A stretch of 64,000 bases of DNA from assembly GCA_045538175.1 (NCBI GenBank), contig JAZSQZ010000101.1:119-64118 (forward strand), given 5' to 3'. The DNA comes from Clostridia bacterium (GTDB lineage: Bacteria > Bacillota > Clostridia > Christensenellales > UBA1242). A program made the translations under genes and the position numbers. The notes beneath the pieces are model-generated. The model had not been told where the DNA came from. It worked only from the letters and a program-made list of their open reading frames with translations, and did no database searches. Below are positions 15,076 to 60,811 of this stretch, in pieces (the first letter of the stretch is position 1; each line of letters starts with the position of its first letter).

Positions 15076-15570
15076 ATGAAAGGATTTAGTGTAAAAGACG
15101 ACAAGAAAATACAACTAATGCTAGAAGGCGAAGAAAAAATGGTTATAACAGCGTTTGATGATAGGGACCTTCATCAAATAGGCTATCTAAACTTTAGGCT
15201 AGAAGGAAAGGGCAGAGCATATTTAAGTTCGATTAAAGTGACCGATATTGAGTTTTTAAGAACAGGTGTTGGTTCGGTTATGCTTGGTTGTTTTGAAAGC
15301 GTATGTAAACAAAAACATGTAAGATATGTTGACGGAAGATTTTATCCAAACGGAGATGGTGGAATTTTTGCAAGAGAGTTTTATGAAGAACACGGATACA
15401 GCATTTATCGTGATGGATATGAGCAATATATTTCAAAAGACTTAGAACACACACCGGTGGATACAAGGTTTGTTATAGAGCAAGAAGAAAGCGAAACCGT
15501 AAGTGATAATTTTGAAAACATTTTTACACCTATAATTGATTTAAAAGAAGATATAGCGCAAGCACAATAA
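15076..15570 (+). CDS. GNAT-fold acetyltransferase-like protein with acidic tail
   Basis: FLRTGVGSVML motif A, FYEEHGY motif B; acidic C-terminal extension. Confidence 0.7.
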   Translation: MKGFSVKDDKKIQLMLEGEEKMVITAFDDRDLHQIGYLNFRLEGKGRAYLSSIKVTDIEFLRTGVGSVMLGCFESVCKQKHVRYVDGRFYPNGDGGIFAREFYEEHGYSIYRDGYEQYISKDLEHTPVDTRFVIEQEESETVSDNFENIFTPIIDLKEDIAQAQ

Positions 15571-15673
15571 GGAGCAATATAAAGTTGCTCTTTTTTATTT
15601 GTTTTATATAAAAATTAGTAATACAAATTCAAAAAAGTATGCTATACTAAAAAAGTACTTTTTAAGGAGTAGT

Positions 15674-16393
15674 ATGTTAGAATTAAGAAATGTATCTTTT
15701 GTTTCTACACAAGGAAAAGAGACAAAAGAAATTATAAGTGATATAAGTTTAAAACTTGATGAAAGATTTGTTGTAATCACTGGCCCTAATGGTGGTGGTA
15801 AATCAACCCTTACAAAACTTATTATGGGTCTTTATAAACCTACAAGTGGACAAATTCTTTTTAATGGCCAAGATATTACAAATATGTCAATAACAGAAAG
15901 GGCAAAACTAGGAATAGGTTATGCCTTTCAACAACCTGTAAAGTTTAAGGGTTTGACTGTTGGCGACCTTATCAAAATTGCAAGTGGCAAGGAATTGTCA
16001 GCATATGAGTGTTGCTCTTATCTTAGCGAAGTTGGACTTTGTGCAAGAGAATATGTCGATAGAGAAATCAACGCAAGTTTGTCAGGTGGCGAATTAAAGA
16101 GAATCGAAATTGCAATCTCACTTGCAAGGGGAAGCAAACTTTCTATTTTTGACGAACCAGAAGCAGGTATCGACCTTTGGAGTTTTAATAATCTTATCGC
16201 AGTTTTTGAAAAGATGTACAAAAAAACAAACGGTACAATTTTGATTATTTCTCACCAAGAAAGAATTTTAAATATTGCAGATAGAATTATAGTCTTAGAA
16301 AAGGGCAAAGTAAAATTTGATGGCGACAAAGAGAAAGTTATGCCAGAACTTTTTACAATCTCAACTTGTAAGGCTTTAGAAGATAAGGTTTAG
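15674..16393 (+). CDS. sufC: Fe-S assembly ABC ATPase SufC-like
   Basis: GPNGGGKS, AFQQP, LSGGE, DEPEAGID; adjacent to a SufB/D gene; SD AAGGAG. Confidence 0.85.
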   Translation: MLELRNVSFVSTQGKETKEIISDISLKLDERFVVITGPNGGGKSTLTKLIMGLYKPTSGQILFNGQDITNMSITERAKLGIGYAFQQPVKFKGLTVGDLIKIASGKELSAYECCSYLSEVGLCAREYVDREINASLSGGELKRIEIAISLARGSKLSIFDEPEAGIDLWSFNNLIAVFEKMYKKTNGTILIISHQERILNIADRIIVLEKGKVKFDGDKEKVMPELFTISTCKALEDKV

Positions 16394-16403
16394 GGGGTTT
16401 AGG

Positions 16404-17327
16404 ATGAAATTAGATGAAATGCAAAAGAACCTTCTAAAAGAAATTGCAGGGTTTGAAAAAATCCCAGAAGGTGCTTTTAATATTAGAAACAATGGCGAGT
16501 TGCTTTCAAGAAACAGCACAGCCGATATTGAAATCGAAACAAAAAAAGATAAGCCTGGTATCAATATTTATATTAAGGCAGATACAAAAAATCAAAGAGT
16601 TGATATTCCTGTTATTGTTTCAAAAGCAGGCATTGTCGATATAACATATAATGAATTTTTTGTAGGCGACAATGCAGATGTTTTGATTGTTGCTGGCTGT
16701 GGTATTCACAATGCTGGTCACGATAAAGCCGAGCACGACGGAATTCACACTTTCCATATCGGCAAAAACGCAAGGGTTAAGTATGTAGAAAAACACTATG
16801 GCGAAGGCGATGGTGTGGGGGAGAGAGTTTTAAACCCAACAACGGTTATCGAAATTGACGAAGGTGGCTATCTAGAGATGGATTCGTCTCAAATCAAAGG
16901 TGTTGACTCAACTGACAGAAAAACTACTGCAACACTAAAGGACAGGGCAATTCTTATCGTAAACGAAAAGATTTATACCCACGGAAAACAAGTTGCAAAA
17001 ACAGACTTTGTTATAAACCTTGATGGTAAAGATTGTGGCACACACGTTACATCAAGGTCAGTTGCAAGGGACGAGTCAAGACAAGTGTTTACATCTCAAA
17101 TGAACGGCAACAACAAATGCAGTGGACATACAGAGTGCGATGCAATCTTGATGGATAAAGCAAATGTTGAAGCAATTCCAAAAATCAGGGCAAACGATAT
17201 TGATGCAAAACTTATTCACGAAGCTGCAATCGGCAAAATTGCAGGCGAGCAATTAGATAAACTTATGACATTAGGTTTAACCGAAAAAGAAGCTGAAGAA
17301 AAAATCATAAACGGCTTTTTAAGATAA
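16404..17327 (+). CDS. sufB: SufB/SufD family Fe-S scaffold
   Basis: GHTECDAI, HEAAIGKIAGEQLDKLMTLGL. Confidence 0.85.
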   Translation: MKLDEMQKNLLKEIAGFEKIPEGAFNIRNNGELLSRNSTADIEIETKKDKPGINIYIKADTKNQRVDIPVIVSKAGIVDITYNEFFVGDNADVLIVAGCGIHNAGHDKAEHDGIHTFHIGKNARVKYVEKHYGEGDGVGERVLNPTTVIEIDEGGYLEMDSSQIKGVDSTDRKTTATLKDRAILIVNEKIYTHGKQVAKTDFVINLDGKDCGTHVTSRSVARDESRQVFTSQMNGNNKCSGHTECDAILMDKANVEAIPKIRANDIDAKLIHEAAIGKIAGEQLDKLMTLGLTEKEAEEKIINGFLR

Positions 17328-17404
17328 TAAAAATTAGGCTAAGGCCTAATTTTTTTATTTGATATTTGTTTAAATAAAAAATTTAAGTATGTTATAATAA
17401 AAAT

Positions 17405-17938
17405 ATGAAAGTACTAATCGCAACAAAAAATCAAGGTAAAATCGAAGGTGCAACAAGGGCCTTAAACAAGTTTTTTGACGATGTTGAAGTAGTGGGTATC
17501 CCTACTGATTCTAATGTCCCGGACCAACCTGTAGACAAGGAAATTTATTTGGGCGCAAAAAATAGGGTTAAAAACTTGAAAGAATACGCAAAAGCAAATA
17601 ACATAAAGGCCGACTTCTATTTTGCAATAGAAAGTGGAATTACAAACCTGCTTGGCAGTTGGGTTATAACAAATATTGCAGTTGTTGAAGATAACACAAA
17701 CACCCAAAGCGTTGGCACAAGTCCGTCTTTCCCTGTGCCTGAAAGACTTGTTGGAGACGTAATAAAAAAAGACTTAAGTCAAGTTATGAACGATGTTTTT
17801 TCAAAGGACGACGAAAGGCACAATCACGGTGGTGGCATACAACTTTTAACACACAATAATCTTTCAAGAATCGACCTTACAGAGTATGCTTTTATAATGG
17901 CGCTTACAACTTTTGTAAACGAAGATAAATGGAAATAA
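17405..17938 (+). CDS. yjjX: Inosine/xanthosine triphosphatase (DUF84)
   Basis: ATKNQGK, SNVPDQP, GAKNR, AIESGI, GGIQLLT, SR. Confidence 0.85.
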   Translation: MKVLIATKNQGKIEGATRALNKFFDDVEVVGIPTDSNVPDQPVDKEIYLGAKNRVKNLKEYAKANNIKADFYFAIESGITNLLGSWVITNIAVVEDNTNTQSVGTSPSFPVPERLVGDVIKKDLSQVMNDVFSKDDERHNHGGGIQLLTHNNLSRIDLTEYAFIMALTTFVNEDKWK

Positions 17939-18019
17939 AAACACGAAGAAATTTTCGTGTTTTTTGTTTGTGTTTAAAAATAAATTTGCTATACTAAAAA
18001 AGTAAAAGGAGAAAAGATT

Positions 18020-18829
18020 ATGTTAGAAGCAATTATTACAATTATCGCTGTAGTTTTATTTGTTTTGCTCATTTCTATTCGTCAAATTTCAGAATATGAA
18101 AGGGGTGTTAAATTTGTTTTAGGAAAATTCAAAAAAGTGTTGGCCCCTGGTTGGCACATTGTTATTCCTATTTTCCAAAGTTATCAAAAAACTGACGTTA
18201 GAGTTCAAGTTGTTGACGTTCCTGAACAAGACGCAATCACAAAAGATAACGTCACAATCAAAATCAACGCTGTACTTTACTTCTACATTTTTGACGCAAA
18301 GAAATCATTGCTTTCTGTTCAAAATTGTAGCTATGCTGTAACTCAACTTGCACAAACAACAATGAGAAATCTTGTCGGTAGTGTAACTTTAGACGAACTC
18401 TTAACAGACAGAGAAAGAATTTCAAACGAAATTTGTTTAATTGTTGATAAAGCAACTGATGATTGGGGTGTAAAAATTCAAAACGTTGAACTCAAAGACA
18501 TTGCACTTCCAACAGAAATGCAAAGGGTTATTGCAAAAGTCGCTGAAGCAGAAAGAGAAAAAGCAGCTGTCATCACAAAAGCAAGTGGTGAACTCGAAGC
18601 TTCAAAAAACCTTTCACTTGCAGCACAACAATTGTCAAACTCACCAGGTGCACTTCACCTTAGAACATTGTCAACAATCAACGACGTTTCTTCAGACCAA
18701 TCAAATACAATTATCTTTGCAATTCCAATCGAAGTTTTAAATGCTTTCGGTGGTAATAATACAATAAAAGCAGTTGAAGCTGTAAAAGATTTGAAGAAGA
18801 AAACAACAAAAGCAAAACCAAAGAAGTAA
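18020..18829 (+). CDS. SPFH/band 7 (stomatin-like) protein
   Basis: N-terminal TM, ITKDNV, AQTTMR, WGVKI, AEAERE. Confidence 0.92.
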   Translation: MLEAIITIIAVVLFVLLISIRQISEYERGVKFVLGKFKKVLAPGWHIVIPIFQSYQKTDVRVQVVDVPEQDAITKDNVTIKINAVLYFYIFDAKKSLLSVQNCSYAVTQLAQTTMRNLVGSVTLDELLTDRERISNEICLIVDKATDDWGVKIQNVELKDIALPTEMQRVIAKVAEAEREKAAVITKASGELEASKNLSLAAQQLSNSPGALHLRTLSTINDVSSDQSNTIIFAIPIEVLNAFGGNNTIKAVEAVKDLKKKTTKAKPKK

Positions 18830-18988
18830 TAAAAAACATACAGTTTAAGGTTTCTAAATTTTGAAACTAGTGAAAAACAAGAGATTTTATTATTTGGTTC
18901 CAATTTTTTTGATTATTTTACGACACAAAAATTTTGTATGTTAAAAATTTATAATATAACGATAAAACACGAGTGAAGAAGGTTGTCT

Positions 18989-19498: not shown

Positions 19499-19577
19499 AC
19501 AATAAAAAAAAGTTAAGATTTTTATTTCTTAACTTTTTTTATTATAACAGTTTTAAAATTTTGCGACTAAGGTGTGC

Positions 19578-20168: not shown

Positions 20169-20187
20169 AGTAAACTCCTAAAATAAA

Positions 20188-21567: not shown

Positions 21568-21753
21568 ATGTTTTTTCCTTTTTTATTTTATACTTAAATA
21601 ATACCACACTTGAAAAATCTTAACAAATAAAACTTTATTATTTGTTTGTTTTTAAGCGTTAACAACTTGATTTTTTTGCCTTATTTGGTTAAAATTAAGT
21701 TGTTTTATATTATTTATCTGTAAATTTTTGAAATTTACAATTTGGGGGATAAA

Positions 21754-22083: not shown

Positions 22084-22110
22084 ATTTATCCACCAAAGTG
22101 GTGGAATTGT

Positions 22111-22689: not shown

Positions 22690-22698
22690 GAGAAGACT

Positions 22699-23226
22699 AT
22701 GATTGTAAAGGCATTTAATGGAAACATGATAGACATTGGTGATTGTATGGGTTGTGCAAAAGCAAAAACATATGGCAACTTAGATGAAAATCCAGGGCAA
22801 ATTTTAAGGACAAAAAACTTTGATATTTCTCAAGATTTCGAACTTCCTATAAATGGTTTTATTGTTATCGGCAGCATAAGGCACCTAAAGTCTATAAATG
22901 AAATGACAATGGAAGAAAAGCAAGAACTTATTGTTATCATAGACGAAACAATAAGGGCTTTAAAAAGCATAGGTGTTTGCAGTGAATACGATGTTGTTTG
23001 GGAAGAAAAGGAAGGCAATCACTTTCACGCTTGGCTTATGCCAAGACACAAGTATTTGCTAGATGCTATGGGTACAAATATTATAAAAAAAGTTGGCGAA
23101 CTTTTTGACTATGCAAAAACAAACTTAAGGACAGAAGAAAACCTAAACGAAATTGCAAAAACTATCAAAAACTTAAAAACAGAACTTTTAAAAAGTCCAA
23201 CAATCAAAAGTTTTGTGGGGGAATAA
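22699..23226 (+). CDS. HIT family hydrolase
   Basis: CxxC, RHLKSI, HFHAWLMPR. Confidence 0.8.
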   Translation: MIVKAFNGNMIDIGDCMGCAKAKTYGNLDENPGQILRTKNFDISQDFELPINGFIVIGSIRHLKSINEMTMEEKQELIVIIDETIRALKSIGVCSEYDVVWEEKEGNHFHAWLMPRHKYLLDAMGTNIIKKVGELFDYAKTNLRTEENLNEIAKTIKNLKTELLKSPTIKSFVGE

Positions 23227-23228: not shown

Positions 23229-23633
23229 ATGAAAAACTTAGTTAAAAAATATGAAGGACAAATTGAGTTTTCAAAAAATCTTATTACAGAAAAAGACCTT
23301 GAACTTTGTGAAAAAGAAATGGAAGTTGTTTTTGGTGCAAAGTTAAAAGAATATGTTTTAGGTTATGGATATCTCGCAAAAGATGATGTTGAGTTTTATG
23401 GCATCAATTCAAAACAATTGCTAAATTCAGATATGGTCAAAAACACAATTTCTTTACATAAAGAATTTGAAGAAACCAAAGATAAAGTTTTGTTTGCAAG
23501 TTTTATAGATAGTATCTATTACCTTGTAGATAAAGACGATATGGTGTTTAAGTTTGACGCAGTAGAAAAAACACTTTTAAAAACAGAATATGATATTATA
23601 ACATTTATAGATAATACTTTTTCTAACACCTAA
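23229..23633 (+). CDS. SMI1/KNR4 (SUKH) family protein
   Basis: CEKEMEVVFGAKLKEYVLGYG and EFYG pattern. Confidence 0.7.
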   Translation: MKNLVKKYEGQIEFSKNLITEKDLELCEKEMEVVFGAKLKEYVLGYGYLAKDDVEFYGINSKQLLNSDMVKNTISLHKEFEETKDKVLFASFIDSIYYLVDKDDMVFKFDAVEKTLLKTEYDIITFIDNTFSNT

Positions 23634-26111: not shown

Positions 26112-27071
26112 TTATTCTGGAAGGTCAGGTGTTTGTGCTGAACCTTGACTAATCAAACCCTTAAGGTCGATAACTTGTTCTGAAATAACAGGTGTAAGGA
26201 ATGGGTTAGATTCAACTTCTTCCATTCTGTCTTTATAAGGGTCTCTGCTCTCATCCCCTGCAATGAATGCAGCTCTGTCTTCTTCCCTTGCTGCAAGGAG
26301 TGCTTCTTTTGCACCGTCGTGACCAAAGGTATTTGTTACCCTTGATACTTCTGGGTGTTTTGCGATATTTACAACAGCACCAGGTCTTTGAGTATTTGTT
26401 CTTGCGTATACAAGTTGTGGATACTCAAGTTCTTTACCCCTTTTAAAGATTTCTAAAACGTCATATCTTCCGTTTTGTTCGATATATTCAACAGTGCCAG
26501 GCATACCATTGTAGGTGTTGTCGTGGTCGCTTACTGTTACGTTTCTGCAATAACCTTTATATTCAAGTTGACCCAAACATCTTTCAATCATAGACATACG
26601 GCTTTCAAAGTTAGAAACTGCAAGGCCCCTTACAACGATAGAGTAACCATTTTCTCTAAGCATTGGGATACCTTCGTTTGCGATACGTGGATTTTTAAGT
26701 GTTTGGTGGAAAATCAAGTTATATCCTTGTTGAGCAAACTTGTTGAAAAGTTTGCTTGTAAGTCCATTTGTCAATTGGTTTGTGATTGCAATATATTCAT
26801 TTGGATATGTTTCTGACAAGAATTGTTCGTTTGGATAGAAGTGCCTTAAGGAGTCATCTTCTAATATAATTACGTTGCCGTTAGGGAACATTTTGCTAGA
26901 GTAAGCAATAAGTCCACTTTTTCCAGCGCCTGTTTGTCCGCCTACGATAACACAGATTGGTTTGTCAACAGGTTTTTTGTTGTAGGTTAGGATACCTTCA
27001 GCGATTTCACCGATTTTTTCTTTTTCTTCATCAGAAATACTGTATTTCTTTAAAATTTCTTCACTAGTCAT
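26112..27071 (-). CDS. Zeta toxin (PezT-like) family kinase
   Basis: GGQTGAGKS P-loop, DSLRHFYP, HDNTY; overlaps a small upstream gene. Confidence 0.8.
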   Translation of the reverse strand: MTSEEILKKYSISDEEKEKIGEIAEGILTYNKKPVDKPICVIVGGQTGAGKSGLIAYSSKMFPNGNVIILEDDSLRHFYPNEQFLSETYPNEYIAITNQLTNGLTSKLFNKFAQQGYNLIFHQTLKNPRIANEGIPMLRENGYSIVVRGLAVSNFESRMSMIERCLGQLEYKGYCRNVTVSDHDNTYNGMPGTVEYIEQNGRYDVLEIFKRGKELEYPQLVYARTNTQRPGAVVNIAKHPEVSRVTNTFGHDGAKEALLAAREEDRAAFIAGDESRDPYKDRMEEVESNPFLTPVISEQVIDLKGLISQGSAQTPDLPE

Positions 27072-27267
27072 TTGCTACCCCTTTTTTAGGTTTAGAGATT
27101 CTCAAAACCCTATCGATAGTTTCCATATTGCCATTGTCGACTTCTTCTTTAAGTTTGATAAGTTGTTTTAACTCTTTGTCTTCTGTGGTTAAACCAAGAA
27201 GTGCTGCTTTACCAACTTTGCTTGCAATAAGTTCTTTTGCAATTTCAAGTTTTGTATTGTCGTTCAT
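27064..27267 (-). CDS. Small helical protein, putative antitoxin or chaperone of the zeta gene
   Basis: 67 aa from MNDNTK with SD AAGGGGG; 8-nt overlap with the zeta start. Confidence 0.6.
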   Translation of the reverse strand: MNDNTKLEIAKELIASKVGKAALLGLTTEDKELKQLIKLKEEVDNGNMETIDRVLRISKPKKGVAND

Positions 27268-27294
27268 TTCTTTTCCCCCTTTTAAAAACACTAT

Positions 27295-27412
27295 ATAAAA
27301 AAAGGAAAACAAAAACTTGTTTACAAGTCTTGTTTCCCTTCATATTTAGACAATATAGTTGTTTTTATTTCCATAACACTTACATTATAATACAAGTTTA
27401 TATTATTGTCAA
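27295..27412 (-). promoter_or_regulatory. Consensus promoter + 17-codon leader ORF + intrinsic terminator upstream of the zeta operon
   Basis: TTGACA-17-TATAAT; leader ORF 27374..27321; hairpin AAGGGAAACAAGACTTG / CAAGTTTTTGTTTTCCTT followed by a T run. Confidence 0.6.
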
Positions 27413-35046: not shown

Positions 35047-36411
35047 ATGAAAAAGAGCTCAAAATCAAAGAGGGATAGACAAAATGATAAACCTCTTGTT
35101 AAGAAAAAGATTGAAAGTCTTGTAGATTTTCATACACATTCAATTGGCTCTAATGATGGTTATTATAGGATTGAAAAACTTATAAAAGCTGCAAAGGCAA
35201 ACCATCTTTCTTATCTTGCCGTCACAGACCATAATAGCAATCAAGAAATTTTAACATATTTAGAAAGTGCTAATTTTAACCCAAGCACAAGAGTTTATTA
35301 TGATGTAAAAGGTATTAAAGTTTTACCTGCAGTTGAAGTGACCGCTAGACTTTTTTCTGTTTTAAACCAAAAAGGTAATTCTTCAAAATTTCACTTTTTA
35401 GTATATGGTTTTGATCAAAGGCCTGAAAGTCCAATGATGAGGCTTTTGAACATTAAAAGAGAAAATGACTTACAAGTTGACTTTATGTATTTAAGGCATT
35501 TTAGTAAACTTACAGGCTTTGAAATCAATCAAGAATTTTTAAGAGAATATATAATTGATCGTAGAAAAGAAGATCATAGTTATCAAACATTAAGCAAGGA
35601 AGATAGTATTTTCTTTTTAAATAAGTATTATAACGGTATACTTAAAACCAACAAGCAACTTGAAGAATTGTTTGGCTTTTGTCCATATATAGAAAGAATA
35701 AATATTGATTGTAAAGACTTAATTAAAATTGCCCATGCATCTGGTGGAGTTGTCATGGTTGCCCATCCAAATAAAAACCTTGCAAGAACACAAAATCCAA
35801 TGGCAGCTATTACAGAGTTGATTGAAGCTGGGGTTGATGGCTTTGAACTTGCAAAAGGGAAATTTGATGGAATAAACTATGTAAGAGATATTGTAAAATA
35901 TTGGCTCAATGATCAAAGTGATAAAAAACTTATGTTCTGTTCAGGAAGCGACTTACATATAAAATCTGGTTCTCAAAATCTTGGCATGGCAAACGGGAAA
36001 CCAATAACAGAAAGGGACAATGCAGAGTTTATATGTCTTCTTGAACAAATGCAACAGGAAAGAATAATAGAAGGTTTTCCACCTGTGGAAAGTTATCAAA
36101 CAGAAGAAATTGAAGGGTTGCTTAGGAAATATACTGTAGAAAAAGTTGATTATCTAAAACAGGTTGAAGAAATGTATAATAAGAATAATGAAAAGTATGT
36201 TGACTTTAATAATTGGAGAATTCAACAAGGCCTTCCGGTTGCAAAAGAGATACTTCCATTTGGTGAGGTTTTAGATAGATTGCGAGGTGCTTCCACAAAA
36301 GAAGGTGGACAGACAGATGAAGAAGATGAAATTGTTGTTTTAACAGAAGAAACAGATGAAATTTCAAGTCCTTCTTTTAGATCGGAAGACTTGGCACCTG
36401 AACAAAACTAA
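35047..36411 (+). CDS. PHP-domain metal-dependent phosphoesterase with acidic tail
   Basis: DFHTHS..DG, TDH, VE, AHP, GSDLH. Confidence 0.85.
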   Translation: MKKSSKSKRDRQNDKPLVKKKIESLVDFHTHSIGSNDGYYRIEKLIKAAKANHLSYLAVTDHNSNQEILTYLESANFNPSTRVYYDVKGIKVLPAVEVTARLFSVLNQKGNSSKFHFLVYGFDQRPESPMMRLLNIKRENDLQVDFMYLRHFSKLTGFEINQEFLREYIIDRRKEDHSYQTLSKEDSIFFLNKYYNGILKTNKQLEELFGFCPYIERINIDCKDLIKIAHASGGVVMVAHPNKNLARTQNPMAAITELIEAGVDGFELAKGKFDGINYVRDIVKYWLNDQSDKKLMFCSGSDLHIKSGSQNLGMANGKPITERDNAEFICLLEQMQQERIIEGFPPVESYQTEEIEGLLRKYTVEKVDYLKQVEEMYNKNNEKYVDFNNWRIQQGLPVAKEILPFGEVLDRLRGASTKEGGQTDEEDEIVVLTEETDEISSPSFRSEDLAPEQN

Positions 36412-40228: not shown

Positions 40229-41455
40229 TTAGTTTTGGTCTTGACCACCAAAGTCGTTTAGGTATTCAAGTTGGTCGTCTTCGTTTTCAACAAAAACTGC
40301 GCCACTGTGTTCTTCGCCCATTGATGTTTCGTAAGTTATATCTCCATGGATATCTGTTACTTCAAAGACAGGTGTACCTTCAATGTTAAGCCCTATCATT
40401 TTCTTTATAGGGAACATTGATTTTTCAAGCTCTTTCATTTCTTTTGCTGACATAGTTTGTTTTGCACCTAATTGTTCGTCTGTTTCAAGGGTGTCCATTG
40501 GGTCAGTGCCTTTAACAAATGGTACAACAGTTGGTTCTGGCCCTTTTGCTTTTAGTAGTTCTGCTTCTCTTCTTTCTGCTTCTAGCATCGCTGCAGCTTC
40601 TTCTAAAGTCATTTGTCTAGGGGCAGGGGTTTCACGGCGAGCTTCGTGTGCAAGTCTGCTCATTTCCATTTGGCTTCTATAACCGTGTTTTGCACTTGGG
40701 CTGTATCTTGCTGCTGTACCTGCAGGGATTTCTGGTCGAATGTACCTAGCACCCGTTTGTGTATGAGTTGCATTTCTTTGTTCGTAATATGCAGAGCCTT
40801 GTTCTCTTGCGACAAAGTATCTTTGAATAACATCTGTTGAATGCTTGCCGAGGGCAACACCATTTATTGATTGTTGGGTTGAACCACAGAAGTGTTGTGT
40901 AAGTTGACCGATAACATCAACCCTTATGTCTGGGTTTGTTACGTCAATTTTTGCTTTTCTATCTGCTTCAACTCTTTGTGGCTTTCCATAAAATTGTACT
41001 CTGCCATCAAAAGTCCTTATAAAACCTGTATGATCAATTGTTGATATGATTTTATCTTTATCAAGGTTTTTGATTTGTCTAAGTTGTGAAATAATTTTGT
41101 TTTGATATGTAAACAAAACAAACAAATCTTTGACAGACAATTGGTCAAGCCAATTTTTGCCACTAGATTTTAAATCAAAGTATCTTGCTTGTTGTGTGCC
41201 ATAATCATATTGAGTGTATTTATCAATATCAAGAAAGTTTGTTGCGATTGCTGTGTAAATTTCAGAAACGCCACTTGATATAATTTTTGCTTTTTCGATT
41301 TCTGCGACTTTTGGAGATAAACCGTTCCTTTGAATATATCCGTTGATATATCCACGAACGGAACTTGCGTATATTTTCTTAAAGTAGGTATTGTTTTCTC
41401 CAACGAGTTGTCGCATTACCTGCCATATTTGTAAATTTGTATATTGTTCTCCCAT
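40229..41455 (-). CDS. Orphan hypothetical protein with acidic C-terminus
   Basis: 408-aa ORF with its own promoter and terminator; no recognisable domain. Confidence 0.7.
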   Translation of the reverse strand: MGEQYTNLQIWQVMRQLVGENNTYFKKIYASSVRGYINGYIQRNGLSPKVAEIEKAKIISSGVSEIYTAIATNFLDIDKYTQYDYGTQQARYFDLKSSGKNWLDQLSVKDLFVLFTYQNKIISQLRQIKNLDKDKIISTIDHTGFIRTFDGRVQFYGKPQRVEADRKAKIDVTNPDIRVDVIGQLTQHFCGSTQQSINGVALGKHSTDVIQRYFVAREQGSAYYEQRNATHTQTGARYIRPEIPAGTAARYSPSAKHGYRSQMEMSRLAHEARRETPAPRQMTLEEAAAMLEAERREAELLKAKGPEPTVVPFVKGTDPMDTLETDEQLGAKQTMSAKEMKELEKSMFPIKKMIGLNIEGTPVFEVTDIHGDITYETSMGEEHSGAVFVENEDDQLEYLNDFGGQDQN

Positions 41456-43543: not shown

Positions 43544-44560
43544 ATGGTAAATAGAGCAACATTTTTAAACGAGCACAACTTTAAATTTTCAAAAACTAAG
43601 GGTGGTATCACTCCTGGGGCTTTTGGTTGCTATACCGATAGTTTTGGGAATTCATATAATGTTGTTTTAAAACTTTCAACCCCAAATCTTAATGGAGCAA
43701 AACAACATACTGTTGAGTGCTTTGCAAGTGAAGTTTTGTTAAGGCTGGGGCAAAGGACTTTGCCTATTGTTAAAGTTTCTGTAAGCGAAGGGTTAAGGGA
43801 TTATATAAGTCAATGTGGATTTGATAAAGAGTGGTACGGAAAGGAAGTTTTAAGTGATGGCACAATTAAAATAGATTTCAACACCCCTAACACTCAAAAG
43901 ATTGAAACAATGTACGAAATAGGAAAAAATGCAGGTGTCGAACCTGTAAGACTTAGGACAATTGACGGTTGTGTTGACGCCATAAAAAAGATATATGGGA
44001 AAGACTCCCCACTTGTTAACGGGTTTTTGCAACAACAGTTGTCAAAAATTTTTATAAACAACAATGACTACAATATCGATGATATGTTTTCTGTTGTTAC
44101 ATACAATGACGGTAGCGTTGCACCGCTTCCTATATATGATTTGGGCTCATCAATTGTAATCGGTGCTTTTTCAAAACAAGCACTAAACAAGTTTGGTGTT
44201 GACGGAAATACTTTATCTCACGACCTAAGTTTTGGTGAAATCAGGACGCTAAATTCTACACTTTACAATCAAGGCACAGCGATGGGCACAACAATGTTTA
44301 CGGATAATTGGTGGAATGATGTTTCTCAAAAACAACTTGTTGAATATATTTGTAAAACTTATCCGGATTCTGCAAAGGAATTTTATGCACATTTAACAAC
44401 TTTTGACGAAGAAGATATTTTTTACATTTGCGACACAATGCAGTCAAACGGAATTGTAGACGAAACCGAAAAAACCTTTCTTACAGATTTTATGTGGGCA
44501 AGGCAAGAAGAAATGATGACAACAATGCAATTAAGTTTGTTTCAAGATGTTGCCCAATAG
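43544..44560 (+). CDS. HipA/CtkA-like kinase (divergent)
   Basis: TPGAFG Gly loop, VLK, ECFASE, NNNDYNIDD catalytic loop, PIYDLGSS. Confidence 0.6.
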   Translation: MVNRATFLNEHNFKFSKTKGGITPGAFGCYTDSFGNSYNVVLKLSTPNLNGAKQHTVECFASEVLLRLGQRTLPIVKVSVSEGLRDYISQCGFDKEWYGKEVLSDGTIKIDFNTPNTQKIETMYEIGKNAGVEPVRLRTIDGCVDAIKKIYGKDSPLVNGFLQQQLSKIFINNNDYNIDDMFSVVTYNDGSVAPLPIYDLGSSIVIGAFSKQALNKFGVDGNTLSHDLSFGEIRTLNSTLYNQGTAMGTTMFTDNWWNDVSQKQLVEYICKTYPDSAKEFYAHLTTFDEEDIFYICDTMQSNGIVDETEKTFLTDFMWARQEEMMTTMQLSLFQDVAQ

Positions 44561-54186: not shown

Positions 54187-56916
54187 ATGACAAAGGTAAA
54201 AAGTTTTATAAAACAAAAATATGTTTATTTTATTATAGCAGGTTTGTTTGTTTTGTTTTCTGTTGTGGCAGATGCCATAATGGGTATTTTTCCTTTTGGA
54301 CCAAACACGGTTGCAACTTATGATGCATGGCATCAAGTGTGCCCGTTATATAATTTGATATTTGACTTTTTTGAAGGCAAATCAACATTGTTTTATTCAA
54401 CAAATGTTGGTGGCGGAATAAACACTTTTGGTGTTTTAACATATTACATTGTAAGTCCGTTTAGCGTTTTCTTTTTAATGTTTGGTAGGGGTGGACTTTA
54501 CTTTGCATATGGCTTTGTGCTTTTGTTAAAAACAATCACAACAGCAATCGTTGCTTGTTTCTTTATAAGAAAAGTTTTTAAAAATGTAAACAAGGTTTAT
54601 CAAATTGTCTTGTCAGTTTTATATGCAACAGGTGGTTACTTTGTTTTTTTGCACACTTGGATAACCTGGATTGACTTTATGATTTATATGCCACTTTTGT
54701 TTTTGGCATACAAAAACTTAATTGAAAACGAAAAGATTTTACCATTTGCAATTGTTATGGCTTTGCTTATTTTCACTTGCTTTGGTATCGGTAGTTTTTC
54801 ATTTATAATTTTGTTTGTTTTGTTTGTTGCGTATAGCCTTATCTGTCTTGACAAGGAAAAACAAAAAAGGGTTCTAACAAACACGGTTTTAGGTCTTATT
54901 GTTGCAATAGGTATTGCTTTGTTTTTGCTTGTACCTAGTTTTCTTCAATACCTAGGTTCTTCAAGAACAGGTGGATTTTTTGAAACACTTTTTACAAAAC
55001 CTGTTTTTAATGAGCACACATCCGATAAACTTGCAACTGTTGTTGGCGACGGACTTATGTTGCTTTTTGCAATTATATATGTTGTAAAGTGTGATAAAAA
55101 AGACAACAAAAATAAATTCTTAATCTTTGCCCTTGTGCTTCTTTTAATACCTGTAATCGTTGACGAAGCAAATGTGCTTTTAAATATGGGCTCATACAAC
55201 GGTTATCCTTTTAGATTAGGTTTTGTATATTCGTTTTTGATTTTTTATATGGCTTCAAAACTTATAAACGACAAGTGGCAAGTTTTTGATGAAAGCACAA
55301 ATTCAAACAAAAAACACTTAATCGATTTTATAATTATTTCTGCAATATATTTGGTGGTTCTTGTTTTGGTTTTCTTGGTACTTGGCCCAATACTATCGCA
55401 ATTCTTAGCAAATCAAACAGCATCTTGGGGAGTTCTTGGTTGTTACTTGCTTGTGCTTGCCCTTCTTATAATCCCAGCAGGCCTAGTTTTGATAAATGCT
55501 AAAACTAAGGGTTTAAGTAAGAAAGTCTTAACAATTGCTATGTGTGTGATAACAGGTTTGCAAGTGTTTGTAAACTATGGTTTTGGTGTGTATGGCAGTG
55601 TTTTAAGTTACAAAACAATTTCGTCAGTTTCGCAAATGTTAAAAGAAAACAACATCACAACACAAAATACCCTAAAAGATTCTGCAGAAATCTTAAGCAG
55701 AAACGCACACCTTGATGTAGGCACAAAATCATATTCGATTTTCTCATCTTCAACTGACAATTATTTGTTAGACCTAAAATCACCTTTTAGTTATGTCAAC
55801 AACAACACAGGTGTTTCTTCATATGGTGGCACAATCATAAGCGATGCAATCTTTGGTTACGATTATGTCTTAAGCGACAAAATGGAAACAAGGCCTAACT
55901 TAGAGTTTGTCGACAGTTTCACCGAAAACGGACTTACTTGTTATCTTTACAAAAACACACTTGTCTTAAATGGTGGCCTTGTCGTAAATGATGACTTTTC
56001 GTACGAAGCAAACAAAGACTGTATTAAGTTTACAAACAATTTTTACAACTTGCTCGGTGGAGACGGGGAAGTCATAAAAGAGTATCCACTTTTTGAAGGC
56101 GATGTTGTTGATATTAAATACAACAACTTAAAACTTACCACCTTAGACGAAAAATATCAATTTGATATTATCGATGAAAACAAGGAAGGTTATATAACAC
56201 TTAGTTATACTGCCACAAAAGATAGCATTATCTATTTGTTTACAAACGAAAAAGATGTCGACAAAATCTATACTTTAACTCAAAAACAAGAAGTGGAAGG
56301 TTTTAGGACAGTTTCTTATTCGCTTGAAGCTTGCCTAAACGACCTAGGTTATGTAAAAGCAGGAGAAACAATTTCGCTTGACCTAAGATTTGTCGAAAGT
56401 GTAAGTTTTGATAAAACAGGCGAAAGTTCTTTGCGTTTTGCAACTCTTGATTATATAGGGGCTAAAAATGTTATAGAGGCAGTAAAAAACAACACTAGCC
56501 TAGAAGTATCTACAAAGAAAGATGGTTTTACTGTTTCAACAACACAAACTGATAATACTAAAAAACTTATCTTTCCACACCCTTATAGCGAAAATTATGT
56601 TTGCACAGTCAATGGCAAAAATGTCGAAATCAAAAACAACAACGGTTTTATCGAAATCGACTTAAACGAAGGCGAAAACAAAATCGAATTAACTTATAAA
56701 AACAAGTACACAAAACTTATGCTTGTATGCCTAGTTGTAGGCGTTGTCTTGGTTACTTGTGTCTTACTTGTTACAAAATTCTTCAAAGAAAAAATTATGA
56801 AAATTTCTTTCATCGTAAGATATTTGTCAATTGCACTTGCTGTTGTCCTTGTCGCATTTTTCTATGTTTTCCCATTCTTCACAATGCTTGTAAAAATGTG
56901 CCTAGGTGTTTTTTAA
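54187..56916 (+). CDS. YfhO family membrane glycosyltransferase (GT-C)
   Basis: DAWHQ, YYIVSPF, GYPFR, many TMs, PYSENY; divergent from gtrA/gtrB. Confidence 0.85.
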   Translation: MTKVKSFIKQKYVYFIIAGLFVLFSVVADAIMGIFPFGPNTVATYDAWHQVCPLYNLIFDFFEGKSTLFYSTNVGGGINTFGVLTYYIVSPFSVFFLMFGRGGLYFAYGFVLLLKTITTAIVACFFIRKVFKNVNKVYQIVLSVLYATGGYFVFLHTWITWIDFMIYMPLLFLAYKNLIENEKILPFAIVMALLIFTCFGIGSFSFIILFVLFVAYSLICLDKEKQKRVLTNTVLGLIVAIGIALFLLVPSFLQYLGSSRTGGFFETLFTKPVFNEHTSDKLATVVGDGLMLLFAIIYVVKCDKKDNKNKFLIFALVLLLIPVIVDEANVLLNMGSYNGYPFRLGFVYSFLIFYMASKLINDKWQVFDESTNSNKKHLIDFIIISAIYLVVLVLVFLVLGPILSQFLANQTASWGVLGCYLLVLALLIIPAGLVLINAKTKGLSKKVLTIAMCVITGLQVFVNYGFGVYGSVLSYKTISSVSQMLKENNITTQNTLKDSAEILSRNAHLDVGTKSYSIFSSSTDNYLLDLKSPFSYVNNNTGVSSYGGTIISDAIFGYDYVLSDKMETRPNLEFVDSFTENGLTCYLYKNTLVLNGGLVVNDDFSYEANKDCIKFTNNFYNLLGGDGEVIKEYPLFEGDVVDIKYNNLKLTTLDEKYQFDIIDENKEGYITLSYTATKDSIIYLFTNEKDVDKIYTLTQKQEVEGFRTVSYSLEACLNDLGYVKAGETISLDLRFVESVSFDKTGESSLRFATLDYIGAKNVIEAVKNNTSLEVSTKKDGFTVSTTQTDNTKKLIFPHPYSENYVCTVNGKNVEIKNNNGFIEIDLNEGENKIELTYKNKYTKLMLVCLVVGVVLVTCVLLVTKFFKEKIMKISFIVRYLSIALAVVLVAFFYVFPFFTMLVKMCLGVF

Positions 56917-56988
56917 GTGTTAGGGGTTGACAAAGTTTTTTAAAAATATATTATTAAAGTATAAACCTTAAGGACAAAAGAGAATATT

Positions 56989-57420
56989 ATGAAAAAAGAA
57001 AAAAATAAGTTACAGTTTAGATTTGGACTTTTTAAGAAAACTTACTTTTTTGAAACTGATGTTTTTGGTTTGGTTTTTGAAAAAGGTCCAAGGGCTGTTT
57101 GTATTTATATTACAGACAGAAAACACTCAGTTATATTTGCTGCAATTCCTATGGGCTATGATAAAAACTTAAGAAGATTTTTATTCACTGTTGGCTACAA
57201 CGAAGAAGAACAAGTTTTTACCGTTGAAGTTGGCGTTTTAAAAATCTTGATTGATGTTAAGAATTGCAGAGTTACTTCAAACAAAAATGCAAAAGTTTTT
57301 GGCTCAGAAATTTGGGGATACGAATGCTCAATTCCATGGACAACCGATTTTGAAAAGTATTTCAAGGGAGAAAAAGATGAGAGTAGTTTACATTCACCAT
57401 GCAAACAGACAGAAGGGTAA
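56989..57420 (+). CDS. Hypothetical protein
   Basis: 143-aa ORF downstream of a TTGACA promoter. Confidence 0.55.
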   Translation: MKKEKNKLQFRFGLFKKTYFFETDVFGLVFEKGPRAVCIYITDRKHSVIFAAIPMGYDKNLRRFLFTVGYNEEEQVFTVEVGVLKILIDVKNCRVTSNKNAKVFGSEIWGYECSIPWTTDFEKYFKGEKDESSLHSPCKQTEG

Positions 57421-57856
57421 TCCATCTACCCAAGACGATGGCATAAGCGAAGTTGGTTTAAAAGATTTAGAAGTTACAAAACAACTTTTAAATATGGCAA
57501 ATCAAAAACACAAGATTTCAACGATTTATACTTCACAATTTTTTAGATGCACAAAAACTGCAGAAGTTATAAATGGCGACATCAGGGCAAAAGTTATTGT
57601 TGACACAAGGCTTGACGAGATGGGCTCAGTTGAAAGAGAAACTTGGGTTGACACACAAAAAAGGTTACACGAATTTTTAGACGAAATCATAGAAAAGCAC
57701 GATGATAGCGACACTGTTGTTTGTGTTACAAGTGGCATAAATTTGGGTGCTTTTGTTCAAAAGTCACTAAACCTAAAGGCTTCTAGCGATTTTCCTATGT
57801 ATGGCGTGCCTAGTTGTTCGCCTATAGTTTTCGAATTTAAAAAGGGTGATAGATGA
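57377..57856 (+). CDS. Histidine phosphatase family protein
   Basis: YIHHA (RHG-like), TS..RC..TA, RLDE; SD GGGAG. Confidence 0.7.
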   Translation: MRVVYIHHANRQKGNPSTQDDGISEVGLKDLEVTKQLLNMANQKHKISTIYTSQFFRCTKTAEVINGDIRAKVIVDTRLDEMGSVERETWVDTQKRLHEFLDEIIEKHDDSDTVVCVTSGINLGAFVQKSLNLKASSDFPMYGVPSCSPIVFEFKKGDR

Positions 57857-58347
57857 AAAATATTATAATCTGTGGTACAGTCGGTACGGGCAAGGCCACA
57901 ATTTCAAAAAAACTTTCAAAGGAATTTAAGCTTACTTACCTTAACGATTGGCAACTCTTTCACGAAATGGGTATGGGGAAGGTTCCTAGTTCAAAAGTCT
58001 TTTCAAAAATTATGTTTGAGTTTTTAAGGGATAAAGAAAAGATTGTCTTAGACCTTGATATGTCGATTATGCCAAAAGATTATAGGGCGCTAAATTTTGA
58101 TTGTATGGTTTACTACATCGGCTTTGTGTCAGTAGACCTTAAAACCTTAACTCAAAAACTTTACGAAGGCGATATTCAAAATATGGTTATGGCAAAAAGG
58201 AAGGCAAAGTATCTTTTAAAGTGTGGAAAGAAACTTTGTAGAGAATGCAAAAAGTACAACCTTCCGTTTATCGAAATAAAAGAAGATAAAGACAAATCTA
58301 TAAAACAAATTTTAAACACTATAAGAGAAGAAATAAAAGGGGAATAA
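57853..58347 (+). CDS. P-loop kinase-like protein
   Basis: IIICGTVGTGKAT, D after the second strand. Confidence 0.55.
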   Translation: MKNIIICGTVGTGKATISKKLSKEFKLTYLNDWQLFHEMGMGKVPSSKVFSKIMFEFLRDKEKIVLDLDMSIMPKDYRALNFDCMVYYIGFVSVDLKTLTQKLYEGDIQNMVMAKRKAKYLLKCGKKLCRECKKYNLPFIEIKEDKDKSIKQILNTIREEIKGE

Positions 58348-58424
58348 AAGACCCCCTTTTTCATTTTAATATTGAAAATTTGATAAATTTATGGTAAAAT
58401 ATTAGTATAAAAGTAGGTGCATAA

Positions 58425-59702
58425 ATGAAAAAAGGTAGTTATGGTCGTCCTGTTTTTGACGATGGCCCATATGTGGGTATCCCGATTGAAGAAGCACAAG
58501 GCGAAAATTGGCTTGCCGAGTTTTTCTTAAAGAGAGCAAGAAAAAAAGATAGCCGTGCAAGGACAGGCGATAAGATCTTAGAAAGATATAGGGCCCGTCT
58601 TGAAGACCCAGAGGACACAAGCGTGTATGACGAAGTTATGTCACAAATTCAAAACAAGCAGTCATATAGACCTGAAATTGTTGTATCCCCAAGGGATATG
58701 GGCAGACTAAATGCCGAACTTGACAGATTTTTAAAAAATACATATGTTAGAAACCCAGCCTATGCAAAAGATGTTGATGCACCATATCTTCTTACATGGC
58801 TTGTTAAAAATATGACAAATTCTGACTGCGAAAACCCTATTGACCACGTTGATAGATATGCAGATTTTGTTGCAGACAAAACATTTGAAAATTTTAGAAC
58901 ACCTGCCCGTCTTGGTAAAATTGGCGACGCTGTTTTCTATACCGTAAACACAGAAGAATACGAAGCAGGCCTTGAAACTTCTGACCTATTTTTGTTCTTT
59001 GCAGAAAACGGACACGAAACATCTTTGCTTCCTTTTATTAGATATGGCATCGAAAAAACAGCAAGTGGACCTACAGCATATGTTTATGCAATCCAAAAGA
59101 GAGAAGTTGTTCAAGACGATTTTAATGAAGAATTAAAAAGAGTTTACGCAAAGGCAAACTCAGGCGTTAAGGAACATAGAAATATTCAACCTAGCATGCT
59201 GTGTGTGCTTGCAACTTTTTCTGGTATGCTTAGCGCAAAGGGTGTTGAAGACCTAAAAGTTCCGGACTTTATTGTTAGAAGATGGGGCGAGTTTTGGGAT
59301 TCACACACAGACGAAAGTGATATTTCAATTCAAACAAACGCAACAAACAAATTTTTATTTACCTTTCAACGCCTTGACAATCAATTTGAAGGCATTGATG
59401 TTGTTGCATATCCAAACGATATTGACAGTTTTATGCACTTGAAGATTTCCCCTGAAGCATATTCAAATAATGATATGTTGCAAACATTTTTCGAGTTTGG
59501 CAAACAAGCAGTGCTCGAAAGAGAAGAAGCACATGGGCAAACTGAAATTATGGACCTTGTTTCAGAATGGCAAGATATTGGTCTTGTCGAAGAAACTTCT
59601 TCATCTGTAGAAGGGGCAACAATCACACAAGTTGATGGTATTAAATCTTTAGTTATACACGACAAAACAAGTGATAGTTTTTTTGAAACTCCAACAGAAT
59701 AA
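58425..59702 (+). CDS. Orphan hypothetical protein with acidic C-terminus
   Basis: 425-aa ORF with its own promoter and terminator. Confidence 0.7.
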   Translation: MKKGSYGRPVFDDGPYVGIPIEEAQGENWLAEFFLKRARKKDSRARTGDKILERYRARLEDPEDTSVYDEVMSQIQNKQSYRPEIVVSPRDMGRLNAELDRFLKNTYVRNPAYAKDVDAPYLLTWLVKNMTNSDCENPIDHVDRYADFVADKTFENFRTPARLGKIGDAVFYTVNTEEYEAGLETSDLFLFFAENGHETSLLPFIRYGIEKTASGPTAYVYAIQKREVVQDDFNEELKRVYAKANSGVKEHRNIQPSMLCVLATFSGMLSAKGVEDLKVPDFIVRRWGEFWDSHTDESDISIQTNATNKFLFTFQRLDNQFEGIDVVAYPNDIDSFMHLKISPEAYSNNDMLQTFFEFGKQAVLEREEAHGQTEIMDLVSEWQDIGLVEETSSSVEGATITQVDGIKSLVIHDKTSDSFFETPTE

Positions 59703-59788
59703 ACAAAACCCTACCACACAGGTAGGGTTCGTTTTTTATTAGGAAAATAAAAAAACACCGAAGCCGGTGTAAAGTTCTTTAAATCGGT

Positions 59789-59871
59789 TGGTGCGGTCGA
59801 GAGGAATCGAACCCCCACGGTCTCCCAATAGATCCTAAGTCTATCGCGTCTGCCAGTTCCGCCACGACCGC
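59789..59871 (-). tRNA. tRNA-Leu(UAG)
   Basis: GCGGTCGTGGCGGAACTGGCAGACGC...ATAGA-CT-TAG-GA-TCTAT...GGTTCGATTCC...ACCA. Confidence 0.97.
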
Positions 59872-59887
59872 ATATTAAAGTTAAATT

Positions 59888-59963
59888 TGGTGATCCACCC
59901 GAGGTTCGAACTCGGGACCCCTTGATTAAAAGTCAAGTGCTCTACCAACTGAGCTAGTGAATC
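59888..59963 (-). tRNA. tRNA-Lys(UUU)
   Basis: GATTCACTAGCTCAGTTGGTAGAGC...CTTGA-CT-TTT-AA-TCAAG...GTTCGAAC...ACCA, 76 nt. Confidence 0.97.
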
Positions 59964-60145
59964 ATAATTTCGAACACGTGATATTGTACACCATATAAAT
60001 ACAAAAATCAAGTGTTTTTTTAAAAAAATAAAAAATATTTTTACTTTTTAAAAATATCTTTGTGCTTTATGCCTAAATCTTATATTTCACTTAAATTGAC
60101 ACTATTGCTTTACAAGTGGTATAATAAAATTAGAAATAGGGGGAA

Positions 60146-60811
60146 ATGGCTATGGCAGAAAATGAAAAAGTTGCAGCGATTGTTATCAATAGTCAAGCAA
60201 ACGCATTGTACAAAAGATTTATTAGTGTTTTAACAGAAAGGGGAGAGACACATGTTGCAGCTGTCACCGATGGACTAGAAAAAGGTATTATCAAAATGAG
60301 TGACAGACAAAGAGAAGTTTTTGATTTATATAAAGATCAACCACTTTTGTATGGTATTGAAAAATATCTTGAAACAAGATTTACTCCTGAAAAAGTTGGC
60401 ACAAATGATTATCAAGAAATTTCAGAGTATGCAGGTCAACACGGTTGGTCTACAAGTTTTACAACACGCTATACTTTCGGGCATAATTCAAACGTAGGTT
60501 ACGAAATTCAAGGTTATAATTCACCATCAAATAGACACTTGTTGGGAGATGAAAACTGTGACAAACTTATTGCACACTTAGAAGGACAAAGAGAAGCCCT
60601 TGCAATCTCAGCAATTGCTGAAGGATATGCAGAAGGGGCAATCACACCTGAGGTTATGAATATGGACGACAAACAATTGTGGGAATATGCAGTTGGTGGT
60701 GGTTTTGCTCCGGTAGAAGTTTCTTGGGCAGAAAAACAAAAACTTGTTATAAACGAAGCAACACAAATGTCAGAGGCGATGTATTCTGCAATTTATCCAG
60801 AAGAACAATAA
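60146..60811 (+). CDS. Orphan hypothetical protein
   Basis: 221 aa; TTGACA/TATAAT promoter, SD AGGGGG, terminator. Confidence 0.7.
   Translation: MAMAENEKVAAIVINSQANALYKRFISVLTERGETHVAAVTDGLEKGIIKMSDRQREVFDLYKDQPLLYGIEKYLETRFTPEKVGTNDYQEISEYAGQHGWSTSFTTRYTFGHNSNVGYEIQGYNSPSNRHLLGDENCDKLIAHLEGQREALAISAIAEGYAEGAITPEVMNMDDKQLWEYAVGGGFAPVEVSWAEKQKLVINEATQMSEAMYSAIYPEEQ

Follow-up and report, generated by a model that had tools for sequence, protein, structure and literature searches.

Seven genes scattered among other genes in a 64,000-nucleotide stretch of DNA from a Clostridia bacterium of the Christensenellales (the window) encode unrelated, lineage-restricted proteins with short polar C-terminal tails, which an initial annotation had read as an export or targeting signal marking dispersed effectors. 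What these proteins share lies in their last 4 to 7 residues only, which lack Lys, Arg and His, draw on Pro, Thr, Gly and Ala and then finish in Glu or Gln; it is not an export signal of 20 to 30 residues. Ends of this kind are enriched among the accessory proteins of the genome, a modest bias that is real but unexplained. The reading we favor, at roughly even probability, is that the seven are ordinary cytoplasmic accessory proteins, restricted to the lineage, whose short polar Glu/Gln caps are kept within each family and would have a role in stability or docking. As it stands, we are dealing with ordinary accessory genes that show a modest, genome-specific statistical oddity at the extreme C-terminus.

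Narrow C-terminal ends are enriched in accessory proteins

The window corresponds to positions 119-64118 of contig C48, part of a metagenome-assembled genome of 1.60 Mb, 153 contigs and 33% GC (G000). Genes were called with a simple home-made codon-usage scorer, giving 1507 genes and 81.6% coding sequence with approximate starts; C-termini are set by stop codons and are therefore independent of the start calls. Recoding of stops was considered and rejected: translation table 11 was kept because dropping TGA as a stop gained little open frame. The family used for comparison has genomes of 0.7-1.4 Mb, and the complete genome of one relative, G047 (1,186,791 bp), served as the reference. A G000 protein with a tblastn match in G047 (E ≤ 1e-5, at least 50% coverage) was counted as core and the rest as accessory; the accessory class of G047 was formed by its proteins without a homologue in G000. 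Two classes of ends were derived from the wording and examples of the initial annotation. The stricter (T4) requires last 7 residues without Lys, Arg or His, with at least one Asp or Glu and with at least five of Pro, Ala, Gln, Glu, Asp or Asn, and the wider (T2) also counts Thr and Gly.

Accessory and core proteins were compared on the 55 contigs with at least 30% of their genes shared, a set that does not include C48. T2 ends closed 25 of 195 accessory but 17 of 522 core proteins (odds ratio 4.4, p = 6.6e-6), and T4 ends 12 of 195 versus 7 of 522 (p = 9e-4). Accessory C-termini also stood above internal windows of the same proteins (T2, 12.8% versus 7.5%, p = 0.006), and those of core proteins stood below their own (3.3% versus 6.1%). 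On the remaining contigs, 59 of 610 accessory proteins (9.7%) had T2 ends and 30 of 610 (4.9%) had T4 ends, versus 7.1% and 2.1% of internal windows. Over the proteome, 52 of 1402 proteins carried T4 ends against an internal rate of 2.0% (p = 1.4e-5), and the excess amounts to about 15-20 accessory proteins beyond chance in G000. With classes taken from 800 kb of G047, accessory and core proteins were alike in Lys content (9.0% versus 9.4%) and GC (33.1% versus 33.0%); because the two are equal in GC and amino-acid composition, the bias is not an effect of composition, and a bias from horizontal transfer was rejected on the same ground.

Certain exact ends recur. The 4-mers TPTE (4 versus 0.12 expected) and GGQG (4 versus 0.06) are over-represented at C-termini, TPTE closing four unrelated proteins of G000, and in an empirical null of 106 internal registers the top count of a 4-mer that is not K-rich was 2 (97 registers) or 3 (9 registers), never 4. 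Anchored comparison of the ends gave, as the largest shared cluster without lysine, DTPEE, TTPTE, ETPTE, DTPTE (twice), DNPTE and ITPEE. Taken together, the recurrent ends TPTE (four times), DPTE, NPTE, TPEE (twice), PEEQ (twice) and APEQN close 11 proteins versus about 0.9 expected, the pattern being a post hoc one. Ends of the form [AEDSG]Q[NA]? were found in 13 of 370 accessory proteins (about 3.0 expected; without C48, 8 of 316 versus 2.6) and in 4 of 412 core proteins (3.6 expected).

Several trivial origins of the shared ends were rejected. Paralogy fails in that all-against-all BLAST found no mutual similarity among the carriers. A repeated DNA element carrying tail, stop codon and terminator does not fit, as the likeness stops beyond the last four codons. 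A Shine-Dalgarno shadow behind the GGQ and TPTE ends is likewise excluded, since what follows the stop in most carriers, within about 20 nt, is a hairpin with a T-run and not an adjoining downstream gene; synonymous variation of the tail codons among carriers also counts against it.

The initial annotation had framed the tails more broadly, and here its account fared unevenly. All seven C-termini occur exactly as it quoted them, none of the seven proteins has an N-terminal hydrophobic signal-like stretch, and the contrast that it drew with K-rich ends of many neighboring housekeeping proteins is real, because Lys makes up 21% of last positions versus 9.2% overall and Pro is nearly excluded from positions -1 and -2 proteome-wide. 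The acidic, lysine-poor extension of 20 residues, defined as K+R ≤ 1 and net charge ≤ -3, is not enriched, occurring in 6 of 50 proteins of the region (12%) versus 10.7% of internal windows, and ends whose last 7 residues lack K, R and H and hold at least one acidic residue (274 of 1402 C-termini, 19.5%) are rarer than internal windows of that kind (24.1%). The hydrophobic residue said to precede the tail is less frequent in carriers, not more (Phe in 7 of 55 versus 252 of 663 others); a hydrophobic or Phe anchor was rejected, since Phe and aromatic residues are depleted there, the opposite trend. Taken singly, none of the seven tails stands out (percentiles of 1-25% for net charge and 7-37% for K+R), and no position-specific residue difference survived correction (Pro at -3, p = 0.0017 over 240 tests). 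The claim that tails distinguish orphan from core proteins thus stands for the narrow class of the last 4-7 residues, which is enriched in accessory proteins, and falls for the broad description.

These negative results, and the post hoc refinement of the patterns, are what would be expected if there were no feature at all, only the disordered, low-complexity ends of fast-evolving orphans, the selection made by the initial annotation and chance recurrences. We regard this as doubtful, though it is the strongest of the alternatives. The out-of-sample difference between accessory and core proteins speaks against it, as do the excess of accessory C-termini over their own internal windows and the four occurrences of TPTE, unmatched at any control register.

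The excess is confined to one genome

The accessory proteins of G047 show no such excess: T2 ends closed 14 of 347 (4.0%) versus 7.9% of internal windows, with 22 of 570 among its core proteins. In the 800 kb of G047 examined, no C-terminal 4-mer recurred more than twice, and ends in xQ were at expectation (10 of 917 versus 10.7). The DNA pattern encoding TPTE followed by a stop occurred 4 times in G000 and 8 times in total across the 60 family genomes, versus 7 for the reversed control. The tail excess is therefore specific to G000. The accessory genes of G047 are equally orphan-like and lack the excess, which argues against a general property of orphans and against chance.

The seven genes and their relatives

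The seven most likely comprise one zeta-type toxin of toxin-antitoxin (TA) character, one PHP phosphoesterase, one or two divergent proteins of GNAT fold and three unassigned orphans (Table 1), and their products are most likely cytoplasmic. Of the effector-type enzyme labels proposed for them initially, zeta and PHP were borne out by Pfam, that of GNAT is weak and the HipA-like label found no support.

Table 1. Features of the window and of the type IV secretion locus (positions are those of the window unless contig C35 is given; ORF, open reading frame)
Feature	Location	Strand	Description	Flanking signals
Orphan, possibly divergent GNAT	15076..15570	+	164 aa; end ...KEDIAQAQ	Terminator-like hairpin at 15569-15593
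Zeta-toxin family kinase	26112..27071	-	319 aa; end ...AQTPDLPE; PF06414, E 2.9e-31, residues 33-214	Terminator at 26096-26070
Antitoxin candidate by position only	27064..27312	-	82-aa ORF; 8-nt overlap with zeta start	12/12 sigma70-like promoter at 27412-27384, just upstream
PHP-domain phosphoesterase	35047..36411	+	454 aa; acidic C-terminal extension of about 100 aa; end ...EDLAPEQN	
Orphan	40229..41455	-	408 aa; end ...LEYLNDFGGQDQN (...NDFGGQDQN)	
Orphan (earlier label HipA-like)	43544..44560	+	338 aa; end ...SLFQDVAQ	
Orphan, probable GNAT-like fold	58425..59702	+	425 aa; C-terminal 55 aa predicted disordered; end ...SFFETPTE	Promoter 58372-58400; terminator 59707-59729
Orphan	60146..60811	+	221 aa; end ...SAIYPEEQ	12/12 promoter 60096-60125; terminator 60816-60841
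Type IV secretion locus (outside window)	G000:C35:47723-70428		Chromosomal, one locus	
VirD4	G000:C35:56263-58266		PF02534, 1.4e-47; also TraG-D_C and TrwB_AAD_bind	
VirB4-like ATPase	G000:C35:64396-67026		P-loop_TraG, AAA_10	
Other C35 locus proteins			2785 aa; 123 aa with two hydrophobic segments; 721 aa; 976 aa; 961-aa orphan	

The zeta gene shows a TA pattern rather than that of a secreted effector, because a small ORF overlaps its start, the two share a promoter and homologues occur in only 3 of 60 family relatives. In its Zeta_toxin match, the overlapping ORF ahead of it under a strong promoter and its patchy distribution, the pair resembles zeta/epsilon (PezT/PezA); unlike in that system, neither an antitoxin family nor any other Pfam family at E ≤ 0.01 was matched by the 82-aa ORF upstream. 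The three strongly matching zeta homologues are tailless (...GLDGITK, ...YMKTFQ and ...EIRAKK). The PHP assignment scored 37.7 bits versus a curated cut-off of 26.4 (PF02811, E 3.4e-9). PHP relatives of 279 and 298 aa from G000 itself align no further than its residues 304-343 and therefore lack the C-terminal extension, and relatives at 30-36% identity have variable extensions ending ...HEKTK, ...DNENGD, ...VTRLEI, ...VYSRQ and ...FSQKL.

In several of the orphan families the end itself is retained. The 40229 protein had no Pfam match, no PDB match and no usable ESM Atlas lead, and eight homologues were found among 5.8e9 proteins: one at 98% identity has the window's own end, three at 73-77% end in LNDFG[GC]Q[DE]Q, and those at 55-58% end in ...EDFEQ or ...EQVE. 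Its AlphaFold2 (AF2) model is of too low quality for a structure search (predicted local distance difference test [pLDDT] score 44), except in a C-terminal beta domain whose last strand is LEYLNDF. For the 58425 protein, which had no Pfam match and no usable ESM Atlas lead, homologues at 81-84% identity finish in ...QTPE and ...QTPEE, with drift in the 50 residues before these ends; two at 63-64% end in ...QTLTE and ...DKDLVE, one at 61% ends in ...PPQTK, and more distant ones lack the extension. The 60146 protein, also without a Pfam match, has four homologues, of which that at 90% identity ends in ...AIYSEEQ and those at 44-53% in ...EPLGQ and ...EQLEQN. For the 43544 protein, three relatives were found among 1.84e9 representatives, two of them ending in ...LESAQ and ...TAVEQ. 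No Pfam family matched this protein, no HipA was among its PDB matches at E ≤ 1 and none of its relatives is named, and a HipA kinase accordingly found no support. As to whether homologues lack the tail, those of zeta do, and in the families of 58425, 40229, 60146 and 43544 Glu/Gln-type ends are kept. That these ends are better conserved than their surroundings and finish in Glu or Gln suggests that they are functional, each family having its own version.

The AF2 model of 58425 is confident (pLDDT 75.6) outside the predicted disordered C-terminal 55 residues (371-396 and 413-425 score below 50) and probably has a GNAT-like fold: most of the Foldseek matches listed, and all of the best, are GNAT acetyltransferases, with probabilities up to 0.98 and TM-scores of about 0.2-0.37, and none reached E ≤ 1e-3. 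The best matches were NatD, Rv0998, GCN5 and the toxin KacT. The 15076 protein, which has no Pfam family at E ≤ 0.01 and no homologue in G047, likewise had N-terminal acetyltransferases as its three best PDB sequence matches, all non-significant (E 0.055-0.29). Both differ from confirmed GNAT proteins in having no significant match (best E 4.7e-3 for 58425 and 0.055 for 15076) and no Pfam assignment.

Compact transcription units with a hairpin after the stop account for at least four of the seven genes: a scan placed a terminator-like hairpin within a few bases of the stop in 4 of 7, and AT-rich hairpins with T-runs follow two more. Strong sigma70-like promoters lie upstream of several tail genes, and a sporulation regulon or coat-targeting motif was rejected since these upstream regions are sigma70-like and not sporulation specific. 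Eight carriers of TP[TE]E-type ends lie on other contigs, and the neighbors of the seven that were Pfam-scanned are housekeeping genes, among them hydrogenase, TyrRS, SHMT and FolD genes and the sigF operon. Outside the window, 11 of 15 proteins of the GGQ/TPTE class had no Pfam family at E ≤ 1e-3, one of the 11 having been scanned over the first 364 of its 638 residues only; a further protein had a match below the curated cut-off, and the three real matches were NTP_transferase, BcrAD_BadFG and Phage_portal. Among the neighbors of carriers, 12 of 42 had no family at E ≤ 1e-5.

Phage contigs and a shared gene pool

The ends could instead be the signature of a mobile gene pool shared by phages or other elements of the genus, which we consider unlikely. 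The accessory excess is similar on the remaining contigs, which hold core-poor large and phage-like small ones; many contigs of the bin carry phage genes, one GGQ-class carrier is a phage portal and the bias is genome specific. Against this, the end that dominates the phage contigs is a different one, ...KDF plus 0-6 residues, accessory and core genes are equal in GC and composition, and on the chromosome the carriers stand singly among housekeeping genes rather than in islands.

The KDF end belongs to the phage contigs, where KDF occurred in the last 8 residues of 31 G000 proteins versus 3.6 expected. In a wider form (...[KEGQNRDS]DF plus 0-6 residues) it closes 72 mostly small proteins (60-330 aa), with BLAST similarity in two pairs only, on small contigs such as C68, C125, C18, C111, C46, C153, C71 and C34 (loci L001-L020). 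The genes form same-strand arrays in which stop and start overlap. The Shine-Dalgarno site of the following gene falls on the codon preceding Asp plus GA, that gene beginning 4-12 nt downstream of the Asp codon; the regular Phe after Asp is not accounted for by this coincidence.

A large T4-like phage, fragmented, appears to be co-binned or resident in G000. The small contigs encode a UvsW-like helicase (38-40% identity to T4-like cyanophages and a pelagiphage), a NAD-dependent DNA ligase in two pieces, GroEL, Hsp20, NAD synthetase, SbcD, an HNH endonuclease and a head closure protein. In all, 82 contigs of G000 (368 kb) share no gene with 800 kb of G047, and its large contigs are of two sorts, rich and poor in core genes.

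A chromosomal type IV secretion locus

A search of the genome for translocation machinery, such as the initial annotation had envisaged, found a VirD4 coupling protein and a VirB4-like ATPase in a type IV secretion system (T4SS) locus (Table 1). All 61 family genomes examined encode VirD4 (38-73% identity), five of them with a second match, and at E ≤ 1e-20 VirB4 is found in 59 of the 61. Synteny of the locus extends to G047, with identities of 31% for the giant protein, 72% for VirD4, 45% for the small membrane protein and 70% for VirB4. It is flanked by sporulation genes (SipL, SpoIIR, a SleB-type hydrolase, YpeB and a Rho RNA-binding-domain protein) and glycolysis genes. By its sequence, the 721-aa protein has a lipoprotein-like N-terminus; the 961-aa orphan, the last gene of the locus, is variable, occurs in 0 of 60 relatives and ends in ...FEIDGPEA. 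Searches for relaxases with PF03432, PF02486 and PF01076 gave none, other relaxase classes such as MOBF, MOBQ, MOBH and MOBC not having been searched. A type VII system was rejected, there being no WXG100 protein and the FtsK/SpoIIIE matches being a weak fragment and the VirB4-like ATPase, and a T2SSE/Tad-type ATPase was represented by one match barely above its cut-off (25.6 bits). Because the T4SS is vertically kept in a family of genomes of about 1 Mb, a core, non-conjugative role is suggested. No description of such a locus was seen among the titles listed on type IV secretion in Christensenellales, or among the titles and abstract openings listed on VirD4 and C-terminal signals. The locus, core to the family, syntenic in the one relative compared and without a relaxase found, is a more solid by-product of this work than the tails.

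The VirD4 orthologues of five relatives (G008, G047, G066, G014 and G001) have acidic ends, four of them with terminal Phe: ...SIDDEIE, ...RMSDF, ...SLDDDF, ...FDDFDF and ...GDFDF. They recall the acidic-Phe tail of F-plasmid TraD, which binds TraM. The VirD4 of G000 itself ends in ...GFNVNGGL. In another relative, the small membrane protein with two hydrophobic segments (G065:C5:10808-13822, gene at 1501-1857, minus strand) is transcribed divergently from VirD4 and ends in ...QEGTPTE, and the G000 homologue ends in ...FSTVAG; the TPTE of this locus protein may be a coincidence.

Given this locus, the ends could be a genus-specific, putative translocation signal for the chromosomal VirD4/VirB4 system and their carriers injected or released effectors. 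We rate this as improbable, much on a par with the mobile pool. The family-wide occurrence and synteny of the locus and the three relaxase families not found favor it, as do the orphan character of most carriers compared with their neighbors (11 of 15 versus 12 of 42 without a family) and the end of the 961-aa locus orphan. In general terms the ends resemble type IV signals, such as the Dot/Icm E-block, in being unstructured, acidic or small-polar C-termini on unrelated, dispersed proteins in a genome with a VirD4-type coupling protein.

Composition speaks largely against it. Known type IV effector C-termini, from Gram-negative systems, are reported to be K-enriched (Lys/Ser-rich), Glu being enriched from -9 to -19 and depleted from -1 to -4, and TP, PT and FF bi-residues are enriched (PMC3915618). 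The bi-residues agree with the TPTE ends, and the rest is the opposite of the window ends, from which Lys is absent and in which Glu or Gln stands at -1/-2. Moreover, G047 has the same T4SS and neither a tail excess nor a recurrent end, TPTE-stop is at control level in the 60 relatives, the carriers include a TA toxin, a sugar nucleotidyltransferase, a BadF-type ATPase and a phage portal, and no immunity-gene pairing is seen except for the zeta pair.

More specific still is the idea that in this genus a few dozen fast-evolving accessory proteins are tagged by a small residue or Pro, then Thr, Glu or Ala and finally Glu or Gln (TPTE, TPEE or xQ) for a relaxase-less, vertically inherited VirD4/VirB4 system kept throughout the family, which would make these bacteria contact-dependent antagonists or parasites; this would be slightly less probable again. 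We know of no effector signal of a Gram-positive type IV system. The titles and abstract openings listed on VirD4 and C-terminal signals mentioned none. If the ends were a secretion tag, they would give Gram-positive type IV systems their first effector signal defined by sequence, and they would be a pointer to the lifestyle of an abundant uncultured family of small-genome gut Clostridia. The narrow tail class is enriched in non-core proteins and a translocation machine is present, so that neither outcome named initially as refuting the idea was observed; altogether, the initial observation is real in part, and as to its proposed mechanism the data speak neither for nor against.

C-terminal caps as the favored reading

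Under the reading that we favor, the ends would be short linear C-terminal caps selected within each young protein family, serving a cytoplasmic purpose, whether by stabilizing the protein against proteases that read the C-terminus or by docking it to a partner, and would not be secretion tags. Polar or charged C-termini resist tail-specific proteolysis, and the tails of SSB and TraD serve docking. Very short acidic ends on unrelated proteins liken the window ends to the SSB acidic tip and the tails of conjugative coupling proteins; those end hydrophobic, unlike the window ends, which finish in Glu, Gln or Asn. A G000 protein that we take to be an SSB ends in ...DDTLPF.

Several points weigh against the caps. 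They leave unexplained why the excess is confined to G000 and absent from G047, and the role in stability or docking is inferred from the general behavior of polar C-termini. Secretion also keeps some probability, given a T4SS that belongs to the core of the family. Accessory status was assigned by comparison with a single relative and with genes from a home-made caller (81.6% coding coverage). Finally, TP[TE]E and xQ were recognized post hoc and T2 and T4 come from the wording of the initial annotation, although the out-of-sample test is sound.

A terminal Gln or Glu, often after Gly-Gly or another small residue, might also be a handle for ligation or cross-linking, Pup-like or as a transglutaminase donor, as ends such as ...GGGQ, ...GGQEE, ...GGQGDD, ...AQAQ and ...PEEQ and the [AEDSG]Q[NA]? 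excess in accessory proteins, seen neither in core proteins nor in G047, would allow, but this is very improbable: the Pup-ligase family was not found in G000, G047 or G008, transglutaminase-core proteins are alike in these three genomes and therefore fail to explain a genome-specific bias, and the carriers are large enzymes, not small tags.

Other features of the window and the genome

Only 10 of the 64 genes of contig C48 have a homologue in G047, among them Tex at 64% identity. The SufBD, MetA, PheA, YfhO and cation-efflux genes of the contig are missing from G047, and the genus of G000 therefore keeps much more metabolism than this relative. Window positions 1-14000 form a defense island with a GC content of 25-29%, versus 31-37% elsewhere in the window, which encodes an HsdM N-terminal fragment, an AAA_15 plus OLD-TOPRIM protein beside a UvrD helicase (a Gabija-like pair), a second AAA_15 ATPase and two adjacent C5 cytosine methylases. 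A SUKH_5 (SMI1/KNR4) protein is encoded at 23229-23633 on the plus strand (1.2e-7), preceded at 22699-23226 by a 175-aa ORF without a Pfam family; SUKH_5 members are generally regarded as immunity proteins in polymorphic toxin systems. Elsewhere in the genome, a seven-member family of very large proteins of 703-4950 aa (G000:C145:21885-24167, C63:9956-14014, C127:3138-17990 and four more) has TIR domains in the two members scanned, one of which also carries TPR and GLUG repeats.

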